Below, in pieces: positions 2,762 to 64,000 of a DNA stretch of 64,000 nt. Both the position numbers and the translations under genes were made by a program. The notes beneath the pieces are model-generated. The model was given only the letters and a program-made list of their open reading frames with translations. It was not told where the DNA came from and searched no databases. Positions within the stretch are counted from its first letter, which is position 1. Each line of letters starts with the position of its first letter. Source of the DNA: a virus; the IMG/VR virus record IMGVR_UViG_3300031954_000001, positions 44,795 through 108,794 of that record; one strand, 5' to 3'.

Positions 2762-2901
2762 GACGGGTCCTTTCGGTGGTCGCAGCGGCTGCGGTGTGCA
2801 GGCTGGCAGGGTGTTCCGGTGGCGTTTCCGTTACCGTGGTGAGAATACTGTATCGCATACCGCGTCGGGTGCGCGAGATACCGGGTAAGCCAGATATTCA
2901 G

Positions 2902-3750
2902 TTATGCGGCCGGCGGGTACGGGACACCCGCAGGCCAGTCAGCGGGGGCGCTGTGCCCCGGGCAGCCGTGCTCGTGGTCGCCGTCCCTGGCCGCCTCGGC
3001 TCTGAAATAGCCGCAAAAGTAACACTCGTCGCCCCCGGGTGTGCGGGGCACCATGCCGATGGTCATCGTCCGGTTGAGGATCTGCTGGGCGACCCAGCGG
3101 CGGGCCTCGGTCTGCTGCAGGATCTCGATGACCTTCGCGTCGTCTTCCGGGGTAATCCAGTGATCCCACAGGTACATCTCGGACAGCCGCGAGGCGGTCC
3201 GCGGCATCGACGCCAGCGCCACCCGCTCCACCTCGAACCCGGCGTTGCGCCAGCCCCAGGCGTACAGCAGGAGCTGGATCACGTAGCGCTGCGGCGGGCC
3301 TTCCGGGCGGCGCGTCTTGGCCTGGCTCGTCGGTCCCTGCAGCTTCCAGTCCACGACGGTTTTCTCGGCCACGTCATACACGTCCGAGGTGCCCGGGTAA
3401 TCCGGGTGCGGGCTGACCCGCTTCTCAGTCAGCCACCGCAGCTCCCCGTTCAGCGCGTTCTCGTTCTCGAAAAACTGGGCGAGGATCGCGTGCACCCCGG
3501 TCCCGACCACCGAGGCCCACGGGTCGGCGGTGTGGTTGGTGACCGGCTCCTCGATCAGCTTGGACACCACCTGCCTATCGCACACCGCGCCCAGCTCGGA
3601 CGGCCCGAGCCGGCGCTGCACGGTGCGCGGCATCCGGTGCGCTTGCCGGACGATCACCTCGCGCAGGTCCATGGCGTAGCGGGCGCCCCAGTCGGTGGCC
3701 GCTCCGGGCGGCGTCGGGCTGCGGCCGAAGTAGTCCGTCATCTGCGTCAT
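2902..3750 (-). CDS. Cas4-like / RecB-family PD-(D/E)xK exonuclease
   Basis: Motifs GPSELGAVCDR, GTGVHA, GTSD..D, VVDWK and QLLLY, plus C-terminal CYFC...C (Fe-S-type Cys pattern). Confidence 0.85.
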   Translation of the reverse strand: MTQMTDYFGRSPTPPGAATDWGARYAMDLREVIVRQAHRMPRTVQRRLGPSELGAVCDRQVVSKLIEEPVTNHTADPWASVVGTGVHAILAQFFENENALNGELRWLTEKRVSPHPDYPGTSDVYDVAEKTVVDWKLQGPTSQAKTRRPEGPPQRYVIQLLLYAWGWRNAGFEVERVALASMPRTASRLSEMYLWDHWITPEDDAKVIEILQQTEARRWVAQQILNRTMTIGMVPRTPGGDECYFCGYFRAEAARDGDHEHGCPGHSAPADWPAGVPYPPAA

Positions 3751-3762
3751 GAGCCCACCTTG

Positions 3763-3984
3763 TCACCCGGTACTGTCATTCCGGTGCCGGGCGCGCCGGC
3801 GGATCCCGGTGAGGGCCAGCGCGCGCTCGTACGCTCGCCTGCTCATGTGCCGGGCCGGGTTCGGGTGATCCTTCGGCCGCCAGCACACCGGGAACGGGTC
3901 CAGCTCGGCCGGGTCCAGCGCGTCGCGCGGCCGGGCCAGCTCGTAGTACTCCACGGGCTCCAGGCAGCGAGGCGTGCTGATCAT
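3763..3984 (-). CDS. hypothetical protein
   Basis: ATG at 3984 overlaps the upstream stop (ATGA). Confidence 0.55.
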   Translation of the reverse strand: MISTPRCLEPVEYYELARPRDALDPAELDPFPVCWRPKDHPNPARHMSRRAYERALALTGIRRRARHRNDSTG

Positions 3985-4403
3985 CGTGGCGGTCCCAGCA
4001 CCCAGCCGCCCTTTGCGTCGCGGTAGGACTCGTAGACGCCCGGGTGGTCGGCGTCGAACCGGTCCCGGTTGAACCGGCGCTCGATCTTCCAGTCCAGGTT
4101 CCACGGCGGCCGGGCCGACGTGCCGGCGAACCGGATGTGCGCGGGGATCGTGCCGCCGTTGATCGCGGTGGCGGCGGCGACGCCCTGCGCCTTGATGTCG
4201 GCGATCAGCTGATCGCGTGCCTTCTCGGCGTCGGTGACGGCGGCCTTGGCCAGCTCCAGCTCGTCCAGCATCCGCGCGAGCTCGGTGCCCGGCTGCGGGT
4301 TCAGCGTGACCGGCGGCGGGGCCGGCGGGCGGGCGTAGGTGGTGGCGGCCTGCGGCTGCGCAGGGTCGTACGGCAGCGCAGGACTGTATTGCGGGACTCC
4401 CAT
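3981..4403 (-). CDS. hypothetical phage protein (coiled coil; C-terminal RRFNRDRFDADHPGVYESY)
   Basis: Purine-rich RBS, GC3-biased codons and coupling to the next gene. Confidence 0.75.
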   Translation of the reverse strand: MGVPQYSPALPYDPAQPQAATTYARPPAPPPVTLNPQPGTELARMLDELELAKAAVTDAEKARDQLIADIKAQGVAAATAINGGTIPAHIRFAGTSARPPWNLDWKIERRFNRDRFDADHPGVYESYRDAKGGWVLGPPR

Positions 4404-61374: not shown

Positions 61375-61692
61375 TCAGTCCGGCATCCCGCCGGTCAGCG
61401 TCCGGCGCAGTTTCACGAAATGCTCCGCGAACGCCGCCGGGTCATCGGCCGCCCCGAGCGCGGCGATCAGGTCCTGCGCAAGCTGCGGGTTCACGCCGCC
61501 CCCGGTCAGGATCTCCAGGATCTTCGCGGTCGCGGCGTCCGGGGAGTCCTGGCCGACGATGACCACGATGACCTCGACCCCGGGCAGCGCGCCCGTCAGC
61601 CTGCGCGTGATGCTGCCGGCCTGCTCCGCGGTCAGCGGCCCGTCGTACCGGATGGCCAGGGAGTCACCGGGCCGCACCGTCACCTCGTTCAT
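61375..61692 (-). CDS. hypothetical protein
   Basis: ORF from the ATG at 61692 (MNEVTVRPG). Confidence 0.55.
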   Translation of the reverse strand: MNEVTVRPGDSLAIRYDGPLTAEQAGSITRRLTGALPGVEVIVVIVGQDSPDAATAKILEILTGGGVNPQLAQDLIAALGAADDPAAFAEHFVKLRRTLTGGMPD

Positions 61693-61767
61693 GTCACCGC
61701 CATCCGCCTGCTGCCGCCTGGCGCGGGGGCCGTGCTCAGGACATAAGGCTAGGCGTACCGTGGCCTT

Positions 61768-62544
61768 ATGGCCAGGCCCCGTTCCCTGCTGGCCGCAGCC
61801 GTCATCACGCTGCTCGCGGCCGTCTCCGTGCTCACCGCTCCCTCCGCTCACGCGGCCGGCCCGTGCGTCCTGCACTCGGACGGCAACTGCGGCCCGTACT
61901 ACTACCCGGCGATCAGCGCGTCCAACGGGTACACCACCTACACGCTCACCCGGGCGGGCAACGGATCCGGGCCGCAGGTCCTGACCTCGTTCAGCCCCGG
62001 CCGGTGGCACATCGTCAGCCGGCAGCCCGGCGTCCCCGGCAGCGTCGAAGTCGCCTACGCCCAGGTATCGCAGGATTTCACGAACCGGTCCTGGACGCAC
62101 TTCGCGTACATCCGGTCGGGGTTCGCCCAGTCGCTGCCCCGCGCCGGCACCTGGATCGCCGCCTACGACGTGCTGCTGGACGGGCCCGGCCCGGTCACCG
62201 ACGTGACGACCATCACCGCCGAGCGCGGCCACGGGCAGTTCTACCTGGACCAGGTGATCGGCCACGCGGTGATAGGCGGGCGGGCGTACACCGTGTTCCG
62301 GGGCCAGGGCGGATCGGCTGCCTTCGACGCGGACCAGGGCATGACGGCCGGCACCGTGCACCTGCTGGCGGAGCTGCGCTGGCTCCGGGCCCGCGGCCTG
62401 GTCTCGCCCGCGGCCGGTGTCAGCCAGGTCGATTACGGGTTCGGGATCGCCTCCACCGGGCGCGGGGCGGCCACGTTCGCCGTCACCGGGTTCAGCCTGT
62501 CCACCTCCTGCCTGCCCGGCCACGCCGGCGACTGCGGGCCGTAA
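61768..62544 (+). CDS. secreted GH12-like protein lacking the catalytic glutamates
   Basis: Signal peptide ending AHA; AAYDVLL, GTVHLL..LRWL..RG and QVDYGFGIAST match the GH12 layout (AYDIW / EIMIW / GFEI). Confidence 0.65.
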   Translation: MARPRSLLAAAVITLLAAVSVLTAPSAHAAGPCVLHSDGNCGPYYYPAISASNGYTTYTLTRAGNGSGPQVLTSFSPGRWHIVSRQPGVPGSVEVAYAQVSQDFTNRSWTHFAYIRSGFAQSLPRAGTWIAAYDVLLDGPGPVTDVTTITAERGHGQFYLDQVIGHAVIGGRAYTVFRGQGGSAAFDADQGMTAGTVHLLAELRWLRARGLVSPAAGVSQVDYGFGIASTGRGAATFAVTGFSLSTSCLPGHAGDCGP

Positions 62545-62608
62545 AACCGGTTGCGCCCGCCCGTACCATGGGTACATGACCGGGATCCGCGGAGCCGGAA
62601 AACCTGAC

Positions 62609-62638
62609 TTGCATACTGTGTAAGACCTGTGCTAAGGT
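62609..62638 (+). promoter_or_regulatory. sigA-type promoter of the tRNA operon
   Basis: TTGCAT-N18-TAAGGT with TGn extension; the ATG lies 7 nt downstream, as expected for a leaderless start. Confidence 0.7.
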
Positions 62639-62644
62639 AGTGAT

Positions 62645-62740
62645 ATGACGTTCTGGGCAGAGCTAAGCAAGCGAGACGGGTACCACACCCCGTCAGCGCA
62701 GCCGTGCGCACCCATCAATGGGACGGTGGACCTGGAGTAG
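62645..62740 (+). CDS. leaderless 31-aa leader peptide containing all 20 amino acids (MTFWAELSKRDGYHTPSAQPCAPINGTVDLE)
   Basis: Direct translation; lies between the promoter and terminator; not in the ORF track. Confidence 0.75.
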   Translation: MTFWAELSKRDGYHTPSAQPCAPINGTVDLE

Positions 62741-62773
62741 CCGACAAGGCAGCAGCAGGCCGGCCGCCCCAGG
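62731..62773 (+). promoter_or_regulatory. putative antiterminator hairpin
   Basis: CCTGGAGTAGCCG (62731-62743, includes the leader stop) pairs with CGGCCGCCCCAGG (62761-62773, the terminator 5' arm) at 11 of 13 positions, one of them G-U. Confidence 0.6.
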
Positions 62774-62799
62774 GGAAAGCCCCAGGGAGCGGCCTTTTT
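62762..62799 (+). terminator. intrinsic terminator (attenuator) in front of the tRNA array
   Basis: GGCCGCCCCAGGGG-AAAG-CCCCAGGGAGCGGCC followed by TTTTT. Confidence 0.8.
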
Positions 62800-62813
62800 A
62801 ATTACATACACAC

Positions 62814-62891
62814 GGGAGCGTGGCACAGCGGCGACTGCAGCGGCCTCCAAAACCGCCACTTCACACGAGGGTTCGAGTCCTTCCGCTCCTG
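62814..62891 (+). tRNA. tRNA-Trp(CCA)
   Basis: Acceptor GGGAGCG/CGCTCCT, anticodon loop CTCCAAA, T loop TTCGAGT. Confidence 0.85.
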
Positions 62892-62894
62892 CGA

Positions 62895-63113
62895 CTGCCA
62901 GCCAAGGCGAGAGCCGCGGCAGGTACGTGTCATAGCATCTTGAGAACTCCATAGCGTGAGCACCACGCGGCGGGCGCCATCCCGCCGCATACCCGGCGGC
63001 AGATCTTGCCGCCGATGCCAGCCTGCCTCCGAGCGGAGTGCCAGGCTGAGGACGTGCTGAACCTGCCCGAGCCGGTTGTTGCCAGACGGCTCGGTCAGGA
63101 TCAGCGCGCACCA
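62895..63113 (+). ncRNA. structured non-tRNA element within the array
   Basis: At least 5 hairpins; ends in ACCA immediately before tRNA-Ala. Confidence 0.45.
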
Positions 63114-63114
63114 C

Positions 63115-63188
63115 GGGCTGCTAGCTCCAACTGGTAGAGCAACTGCCTTGCAAGCAGAAGGTTCAGGGTTCGACTCCCTGGCGGTCCA
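63115..63188 (+). tRNA. tRNA-Ala(TGC)
   Basis: Full cloverleaf with G3:U70. Confidence 0.9.
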
Positions 63189-63192
63189 CCCA

Positions 63193-63266
63193 CGGGATGT
63201 AGTGAAGTGGCATCACGCTTGGCCTGGGACCAAGTGACGCGCGTCCGATTCGTGCCATCCCGACCA
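63193..63266 (+). tRNA. tRNA-Pro(TGG)
   Basis: Acceptor CGGGATG/CATCCCG; loop CCTGGGA (C33); T loop TCCGATT; encoded CCA. Confidence 0.8.
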
Positions 63267-63267
63267 T

Positions 63268-63344
63268 GGCTCTCTAAAGCTGAGACGGATTAGCTCCGGA
63301 TTGAAGCCCCGGGCAGGCAGGTTCGATACCTGCGGGAGCCACCA
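63268..63344 (+). tRNA. tRNA-Phe(GAA)
   Basis: Anticodon loop TTGAAGC, T arm and encoded CCA. Confidence 0.8.
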
Positions 63345-63345
63345 T

Positions 63346-63420
63346 GCCTTGGTAACACAACGGCTAGTGTTCCAGACTTCCAATCTGGGAATGCCGGTTC
63401 GATTCCGGTCCAGGGCTCCA
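63346..63420 (+). tRNA. tRNA-Gly(TCC)
   Basis: Full cloverleaf, U73 and CCA. Confidence 0.9.
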
Positions 63421-63421
63421 C

Positions 63422-63498
63422 GCTCCGGTAGCTCAGCGGTATGAGCGGCGGGCTCTTAACCCGCGTCGACGGGAGTTCGATCCTCTCCCGGAGCACCA
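63422..63498 (+). tRNA. tRNA-Lys(CTT)
   Basis: Full cloverleaf and CCA. Confidence 0.9.
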
Positions 63499-63499
63499 T

Positions 63500-63577
63500 G
63501 GGCGGGTAAGGCCAACCGGCAGAGCTGGCTCCCTCAAAATGAGCTGAATGAGGGTTCGACTCCCTCCTCGCCCACCA
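63500..63577 (+). tRNA. tRNA-Leu(CAA) with short variable loop
   Basis: Anticodon loop CTCAAAA, A73 and CCA; only a 5-nt variable region. Confidence 0.75.
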
Positions 63578-63578
63578 A

Positions 63579-63655
63579 TGCCCTCTAGTTCAACTGGCAG
63601 AACACCTGCCTCTGAAGCAGCGAGGTTCCTGGTTCGATCCCAGGGAGGGCAGCCA
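63579..63655 (+). tRNA. tRNA-Gln(CTG)
   Basis: U1:A72, G73, anticodon loop CTCTGAA and CCA. Confidence 0.9.
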
Positions 63656-63656
63656 T

Positions 63657-63725
63657 GCCGTCGCGCGCTGGCCGCGGCCTCGCCCTCGTAAGGCGGGAGG
63701 TCCGGTTCGACACCGGAGGACGGCT
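63657..63725 (+). tRNA. tRNA-Thr(CGT), reduced D arm
   Basis: Acceptor GCCGTC/GACGGC, anticodon loop CTCGTAA and intact T arm. Confidence 0.7.
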
Positions 63726-63824
63726 CTATGGTGCGGTACCGGGCCTGCGCAGCCTACCCGGCTTCGCACGTGCGCGCAGCGCCCGCCGGGACCTGGCCGG
63801 GCCTCCGGCGGACCGCACCGATGT

Positions 63825-63870
63825 CCGGGTTTTGGCCTCCGTGACGTTGGTTCGACCCCAGCATCCCGAG
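63825..63870 (+). pseudogene. 3' half of a tRNA-Gln(TTG)-like sequence
   Basis: TTTTGGC loop, T arm GTTGG-TTCGACC-CCAGC, then ATCCCGA-G; no matching 5' strand visible. Confidence 0.4.
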
Positions 63871-63911
63871 CAAAGGCTGTCCCAGATACTCAGCGGCAGC
63901 CAGCAGCTCAC

Positions 63912-63985
63912 GCCCTCATAGCTCAGTAGGTAAGAGCGTGCCCTTGGTAAGGGTGAGGTCCCGCGTTCGATTCGCGGTGAGGGCT
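63912..63985 (+). tRNA. tRNA-Thr(GGT)
   Basis: Full cloverleaf. Confidence 0.9.
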
Positions 63986-64000
63986 CTGAGCCGGTCGGAC

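Follow-up and report, generated by a model that had tools for sequence, protein, structure and literature searches.

The 31-codon open reading frame (ORF) that stands ahead of the tRNA array in this virus is probably (roughly 0.6) the translated leader of a ribosome-mediated attenuator, through which the phage would gate the array by the general speed of translation. The observations behind this reading are the conservation of the leader-array unit among relatives, a reading frame that has been maintained, the lack of protein-level constraint on the encoded peptide, an intrinsic terminator between the ORF and the array and, in the commoner of two versions of the leader, a conserved antiterminator. 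From these observations, we infer that the ORF is translated, that the array is read when translation slows, and that the signal sensed is the overall rate of decoding. If this is correct, the phage takes a direct measure of decoding capacity and provides tRNAs as they are needed.

The stretch of DNA analyzed, hereafter the window, comprises the terminal 64 kb of the record of an uncultured virus; the record is 108,794 bp in length, has a G+C content of 69.7% and is estimated to be 52% complete. The GC3 of the phage genes is 90%. The tRNA array leaves the contig at its end, such that the window shows its first part only. The features of the locus are as follows, where G001 is a related contig described below.

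62609-62614, plus strand: -35 hexamer, TTGCAT, with an 18-nt spacer to the -10; the same in G001, while the flanking bases differ
62630-62638, plus strand: extended -10, TGnTAAGGT; invariant between the window and G001
62645-62740, plus strand: leader ORF of 31 codons, encoding all 20 amino acids
62675-62694, plus strand: hairpin within the ORF, GACGGG-N8-CCCGUC, in the minimum-energy fold; stem invariant and three of eight loop bases changed in G001; energy within chance
62696-62709, plus strand: hairpin within the ORF, GCGCA-GCCG-UGCGC, in the minimum-energy fold; kept only in part in G001
62711-62775, plus strand: candidate antiterminator, in which the last ORF codons (62711-62735) would pair with 62753-62775, including 11 bases of the terminator 5' arm
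62762-62799, plus strand: intrinsic terminator, a 13-bp G+C stem (62762-62794) followed by UUUUU (62795-62799)
62814-62892, plus strand: tRNA-Trp(CCA), the first gene of the array, 14 nt past the U-run
62893-63114, plus strand: conserved structured spacer from tRNA-Trp to the next tRNA; no Rfam match
63115-63986, plus strand: visible remainder of the array, i.e., Ala(tgc), Pro(tgg), a Phe-like gene, Gly(tcc), Lys(ctt), Leu(caa), Gln(ctg), Thr(cgt) and Thr(ggt)

In the proposed mechanism, transcription from the conserved promoter would begin at the ATG and give a leaderless RNA. A ribosome that arrives at the stop codon would cover the last codons of the ORF, the terminator would form, and transcription would end ahead of tRNA-Trp. 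If the ribosome were delayed earlier in the ORF, these last codons would pair with the 5' arm of the terminator and the polymerase would read into the array. Because the leader has no run of one codon and is a varied, non-optimized stretch with recurrent rare codons (CTA, CGA), it would report the general speed of decoding and not the supply of one amino acid.

The same order of elements, namely promoter, short ORF, U-tailed hairpin, tRNA-Trp, conserved spacer and array, occurs in 25 related contigs, nearly all from soil. These comprise G001, which was reached via the head-tail adaptor, and 24 contigs that were reached via a 23-nt spacer block after tRNA-Trp: 22 soil metagenome contigs and two actinobacterial MAG contigs, one of them labeled Trebonia sp. 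In all 25, tRNA-Trp heads the conserved leader-array unit; two contigs carry a stray Thr(tgt) further upstream. The spacer of ~220 nt (L044 4034-4257 in G001) is the most conserved part of the locus. Specifically, the window and G001 share two blocks, of 25 and 28 nt, without a difference, and a 23-nt core is the same in the 22 metagenome contigs, the two MAG contigs and G001.

The leader itself exists in two versions that have no sequence likeness. Type A is carried by the window, L047-L049, L055 and G001, and type B by 19 contigs (17 metagenome contigs and both MAG contigs). The leaders of L047, L049 and L055 are 100% identical to that of the window; that of L048 is 96.7% identical, and the peptide is the same in all five. 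In G001, a contig of 190 kb with a 38-tRNA array, the -35, the extended -10, the stop context and the terminator are as in the window, and the ATG lies 6 nt past the -10. Its ORF has 33 codons with an in-frame 6-nt indel and differs from that of the window by about six non-synonymous and three synonymous changes in 22 codons. G001 also carries an HNH-endonuclease-like ORF of about 400 nt, inserted between the leader terminator and tRNA-Trp (L044 3565-3960).

The -10 is separated from the ATG by 6 nt that are different in each of the three type-A versions (AGTGAT, AGTTAC and GGGACC) and contain no Shine-Dalgarno sequence. The transcript should therefore start at or beside the ATG, i.e., it should be leaderless. 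A simple scan for promoters and terminators made no call at the leader because the terminator stem is bulged and the -35 matches at only three of six positions.

Type-B leaders have a promoter that consists of an invariant ATAAAT followed by TTGC, 17-18 nt, TANNNT and 6-7 nt to the ATG. Downstream lie ATGAGGACG and the ORF, which is 43-90 codons long with ..VPV ahead of its stop, then a small hairpin and a U-tailed terminator, the latter about 25 nt ahead of tRNA-Trp. In the 17 distinct type-B leaders, the reading frame contains no stop in 1077 codons, as compared to 51 and 20 stops in the other frames, and ORFs of 11 different lengths are all in frame. In L054 and L056, in-frame 18-nt tandem repeats (unit WRSASS) extend the ORF to 83-90 codons. 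In L069, from an uncultured Actinomycetota MAG, loss of 1 nt (CCTAGG to CCTGG) breaks the frame, such that the leader ORF stops about 40 nt too soon; this copy has either truly decayed or been misassembled.

The peptide evolves differently from the frame. In the conserved C-terminal block of type B, pairwise differences at the first, second and third codon positions are 0.25, 0.33 and 0.26, respectively, such that the second position varies most, and non-synonymous differences number 1326 versus 231 synonymous ones. Invariance is seen at the nucleotide level, e.g., in GTT CCT where the ORF ends. These data support an ORF that is kept open by selection and a peptide that is unconstrained as a protein, the latter because of the substitution pattern and because two unrelated peptides occupy the same place. 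We rejected a chance origin for the leader ORF because its frame is maintained, and a functional micro-protein because of how the substitutions are distributed.

The RNA structures of type B were evaluated in the alignment. The terminator is 99.6% paired and contains three pairs with compensatory changes, a number matched by 8 of 500 shuffles; the number of cells with changes on both sides and the covariation score were matched by none of 500. When the alignment was folded only to the terminator loop, an antiterminator formed between GGGC-N-GGUUCC and GGAGCC-GCYC that is 97% paired. This helix uses the last five codons of the ORF, ends 5 nt ahead of the stop and has 6-10 bases in common with the 5' arm of the terminator. 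Its energy gain is -13 to -17.5 kcal/mol, versus about -6 kcal/mol in shuffles (P ≤ 0.013 in five of six). Judged by its sequence, the type-B layout is the apparent anatomy of a ribosome-mediated attenuator.

In the window, the terminator begins 21 nt past the ORF stop, has an energy of -28 kcal/mol (z -3.27; none of 200 shuffles as good) and is kept in G001. The two hairpins within the ORF that had been described in the earlier note are indeed both present in the minimum-energy fold; the fold of the ORF alone is no more stable than that of shuffled sequences (z -0.88; 37 of 200 as good). The terminator always formed in full-length folds, at every position of the ribosome mask, so only co-transcriptional folds are informative. 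In RNA folded only to 62776-62780, the candidate antiterminator is predicted at any ribosome position, and an equivalent was seen in G001. Its energy gain of -9.3 kcal/mol is at the level of random segments of the genome, and we treat it as an unproven candidate pairing. The attenuator proposed for type A is therefore less secure than that of type B; four points speak for it, namely the identical position and layout of the elements, the conservation of its promoter and ATG, the indel that keeps the frame, and its analogy to type B.

These properties of type A bear on a second reading, in which the ORF and hairpin form a small self-contained transcription unit, either a micro-protein or a small RNA with its own terminator, the array owes its expression to constitutive leak-through or to another source, and translating the ORF has no regulatory effect. 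A terminator that persists in every full-length fold, a type-A antiterminator no better than chance and the tolerance in G001 of an ORF between the terminator and the array are all in keeping with such a unit. Against it, the peptide shows no protein-level constraint, has lengths of 31-90 residues and exists as two unrelated versions. Moreover, no promoter other than the strongly conserved one precedes the array, and the distance from the U-run to tRNA-Trp is only 14-25 nt, with neither space nor a conserved motif for a second promoter. Finally, the antiterminator of type B is conserved, stronger than in shuffles and located exactly at the end of the ORF. We consider the self-contained unit unlikely.

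The leader might also be a non-translated regulatory RNA, whether riboswitch-like, T-box-like or protein-bound, whose open frame is incidental. This would account for conservation that follows nucleotides and not amino acids, and for the rare T-ending codons (GTT CCT, TAT) that lie in conserved stems. It would leave unexplained a frame free of stops, length variants that are in frame down to the 18-nt repeats, and an ATG fixed at 6-7 nt past the -10 in both leader types. In addition, an Rfam scan of 61500-64000 at E ≤ 1 returned only tRNA and weak chance matches, and no T-box. There is little chance that this explanation is the correct one.

The earlier note had proposed a different reading of the leader, namely that its codons sample isoacceptors and match the anticodons of the array; on such a reading, the leader would be built codon by codon and each tRNA would be tested by its own codon. 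The codons of the ORF are ATG ACG TTC TGG GCA GAG CTA AGC AAG CGA GAC GGG TAC CAC ACC CCG TCA GCG CAG CCG TGC GCA CCC ATC AAT GGG ACG GTG GAC CTG GAG TAG. As had been noted, repeated residues often use different codons: Thr, Ser, Leu, Ala and Pro have two codons each, versus a single codon each for Glu, Asp and Gly. The A/T-ending codons that had been called rare (CTA, CGA, TCA and AAT) are present and, like GCA, each account for 2-7% of their own codon family in phage genes; CTA is codon 7 (62663-62665) and CGA is at 62672-62674. There is no codon run for any amino acid, the first 14 residues are all different, and 20 kinds occur in 31 residues. The count of seven exact cognate codons for the 10 visible tRNAs is likewise correct.

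We compared these counts to two null models: random 31-codon windows of the phage's own genes, and the same peptide with synonymous codons redrawn according to phage usage. Relative to random gene windows, as the earlier note had suggested for comparison, the ORF is above chance (P = 0.007 for at least seven cognates; P = 0.009 for at least 25 distinct codons). With the peptide fixed, by contrast, its values are ordinary: seven exact cognates versus 5.9 expected (P = 0.23), 25 distinct codons versus 24.8 (P = 0.58), and five repeated residues with more than one codon versus 4.5 (P = 0.50). The number of A/T-ending codons is mildly high (6 versus 2.9 expected, P = 0.06), and codon diversity is below that of uniform synonymous use (25 versus 27.4). 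The excess of cognates over gene windows arises because the peptide holds all 20 amino acids. More generally, the apparent match in the window results from this all-20 peptide together with array tRNAs that read the commonest codons of the phage; six of the 10 visible tRNAs read common codons (TGG, TTC, AAG, CAG, ACC and ACG).

The number of leader codons that can be read with wobble was also calculated. For the partial array visible in the window, it is 14 of 31 versus 10.8 expected (P = 0.026), which favors matching. The complete arrays of relatives match worse than expected: 26 of 31 leader codons are readable in L049 versus 29.2 expected (37 tRNAs; P ≤ 0.003 for a value as low or lower), 25 of 31 in L048 versus 27.8 (34 tRNAs; P ≤ 0.014, likewise), and 28 of 33 in G001 versus 30.6 (38 tRNAs; P ≤ 0.007, likewise). 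In L049, no tRNA reads the leader codons GCA (present twice), CTA, TCA and TAC; similarly, GCA, CTA and TCA have no reader in L048. A composite array, consisting of the window's ten tRNAs and those of L049 after Thr(ggt) and assumed from the 98% identity that resumes there, reads 27 leader codons versus 26.1 expected, which is not significant. In the opposite direction, 18 of 36 array tRNAs have their exact codon in the leader for L049 (20.9 expected), and 16 of 30 for the composite (17.4 expected). Exact matches in type-B leaders number 30 versus 43.9 expected for L054 and 25 versus 28.4 for L064.

A replacement within the array bears on the same point. L049 is identical to the window up to 63105, different throughout 63106-63824, and 98% identical from 63825. 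The differing block contains Ala(ggc), Ala(cgc), Pro(cgg), Pro(ggg) and Pro(tgg) in L049 versus Ala(tgc) and Pro(tgg) in the window, and L049 totals 37 tRNAs. The same leader before two array cassettes is a natural experiment against co-adaptation. The swapped block of L049 (reverse strand; oriented 2855-4219) has seven more tRNAs than the window, all canonical.

Codon-anticodon tuning and isoacceptor sampling are thus not supported, since the leader is ordinary once the peptide is fixed, complete arrays match worse and one leader precedes different cassettes; even with rare codons over-represented in leaders across the family, a leader built to match its array is highly unlikely. The underlying observation was accurate. 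The broader proposal that selection acts on tRNA coverage and not on peptide function holds in its second part, in that the ORF has been kept without protein-level constraint; the part that invoked tuning of codons to anticodons does not. Similar claims on other phages need the same fixed-peptide control, which the codon-per-tRNA idea fails here together with the comparison to complete arrays.

The amino-acid content of the leader is unusual in itself. All 20 amino acids within 31 residues occur in 1 of 18,936 gene windows (P about 5 × 10−5) and at one other place in the six frames of the contig. The leaders of relatives contain 15-20 kinds of residue, mostly above expectation. Among 15 distinct type-B peptides, eight have all 20 (lengths of 55-90); L051 has them in 55 residues, or in 43 if an internal GTG is the start. 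At the other end, the L062 leader has 15 kinds in 47 residues, and that of G001 has 17 in 33 (P = 0.07), lacking His, Tyr and Val, for each of which the array does carry tRNAs. Combining P values by Fisher's method for one leader per lineage, with the window omitted, gives about 7 × 10−4, a value that ignores the core and ancestry that type-B leaders share. High coverage therefore appears to be a real tendency, not a rule, and the evidence for it is suggestive only.

Leaders of both unrelated types are enriched in rare codons. In ten representative leaders, CTA occurs 10 times versus 0.7 expected (14-fold; in 9 of 10) and CGA 18 times versus 3.0 (6-fold; in 10 of 10); AGT, AAT, ACA and GTT are also high. 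Part of this excess arises because several of the rare codons lie in conserved stems (GTT CCT, TAT). CTA is found at three non-homologous positions: codon 7 in the window, codon 27 in G001 and the core of type B. Only two of the eight arrays checked contain tRNA-Leu(tag), and CTA has no reader in the other six. The recurrence of CTA fits slow codons that set the transit time of the ribosome, not codons matched to the array.

Within the attenuator reading, the leader could act as a broad decoding gauge, in which a delay at any of ~20 kinds of codon, above all at the recurrent rare CUA and CGA that are incompletely served by most arrays, opens a nearly complete set of tRNAs. We advance this tentatively, as a possibility that is open to considerable doubt. 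If true, the phage's tRNA supply would be turned on only when the host pool fails, as in starvation, host shut-off or attack by a tRNA-cutting defence. The leader would then be both a homeostat and a counter-defence sensor of a kind not described for tRNA genes. Regulation of phage tRNA genes is barely known, at a time when phage tRNAs attract much interest as a means to counter tRNA-cutting defences (PMC10264068, PMC11464382, PMC11555353). The family of 25 contigs, with its two leader designs and natural length variants, is a ready set of constructs.

Our literature search returned no published leader-peptide attenuator ahead of tRNA genes. The systems nearest in mechanism are classical attenuators, the leaderless Cys ORFs of mycobacteria and leaders that respond to global slowdown. 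As in classical attenuators (trpL, hisL, leuL and pheL; the multivalent thr and ilvGMEDA), a short ORF is followed by a terminator whose 5' arm can alternatively pair with the end of the ORF, and in the proposed scheme a ribosome at the stop would favor termination and a stalled ribosome read-through. Those leaders control biosynthetic enzymes, whereas the phage leader would control tRNAs from a leaderless mRNA, and it shows no clear 1:2 pause helix or anti-antiterminator helix. The main departure from the classical family is the lack of its hallmark, tandem regulatory codons: no stretch of the phage leader is devoted to one or a few amino acids, and 15-20 kinds are present.

In mycobacteria, a leaderless polycysteine short ORF is the first cistron of operons in which its translation sets downstream expression (bioRxiv 10.1101/834739). 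The actinobacterial setting, the leaderless short ORF and the control of downstream genes by translation are similar; the mycobacterial ORFs, however, are Cys-rich, specific to cysteine and control protein-coding operons. The leaders of ermC (PMC2965389) and of mef/mel(msrD), the latter acting by transcription attenuation (PMC4335068), sense global slowdown of translation. Like the attenuator proposed here, they have no amino-acid specificity, and downstream genes are turned on by whatever slows the ribosome on the leader. They differ in responding to antibiotics, often through a specific arrest peptide, and in controlling resistance genes; the peptide of the phage leader is not conserved and its target is a tRNA array.

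The nearest system in function is the trn operon of Anabaena, a long tRNA array that is silent and is induced under translational stress (PMC8421152). In both cases, an extra array of tRNAs would be turned on when translation is impaired. The Anabaena operon, however, is on a bacterial megaplasmid, not in a phage, and is controlled by a repressor, TrcR, whose targets are direct repeats that span the -10 and start site (PMC10272220); the text of the 2021 paper on the operon does not contain 'attenuat', 'leader' or 'terminator'. T-box riboswitches also couple tRNA status to read-through at a terminator/antiterminator pair, but they act through direct binding of uncharged tRNA, without any need for an ORF, and their targets are genes for aminoacyl-tRNA synthetases and amino acids. 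The array of the isolated Streptomyces phage Alone3 (L070 540-600) is headed by a perfect TTGACA-17-TATAAT promoter with no leader ORF or terminator. Because this array has a plain promoter without a leader, the attenuator design is specific to the present lineage and does not extend to actinophage arrays in general.

The phage is very divergent, since PHROGs and Pfam recognize almost nothing among the 18 proteins searched: a head-tail adaptor, two actinobacterial domains of unknown function and one match under the Pfam cut-off. Among isolated phages, blastn with the leader region matched tRNA genes only, and tblastn with a structural protein gave no match. A neighboring GH12-like protein had no relatives among viral contigs. 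The degenerate leader-peptide pattern was absent from the viral contigs searched; with the leader pattern and spacer key, G001 was the sole relative among them. A 17-mer of the type-B antiterminator had one match in viral contigs, in a place without tRNAs, and this was rejected as chance. The stretch is present in 23 soil DNA sequencing runs and in no RNA run among those listed. Two contigs of the family, L068 (the Trebonia sp. MAG contig) and L069, were binned with actinobacterial soil MAGs. This is a hint to the host group, binning of phage contigs being weak evidence.

As for the array, ARAGORN called nine tRNAs from 62814 to 63986. For the tenth, the Phe-like gene at 63268-63345, neither ARAGORN nor Rfam made a call; its homologue is a relative's tRNA-Phe(GAA) (57 of 75 bases), which occupies the equivalent position in its array. 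In relatives with the same leader, the arrays have 34-38 tRNAs, and arrays serve 18-19 amino acids. The array of the window probably has about 31-37 genes and would cover nearly all amino acids. Between Thr(cgt) and Thr(ggt), 185 nt (63727-63911) have no tRNA call; relatives have Leu(gag), Thr(tgt) and Gln(ttg) there, and the stretch may contain decayed or non-canonical tRNAs.
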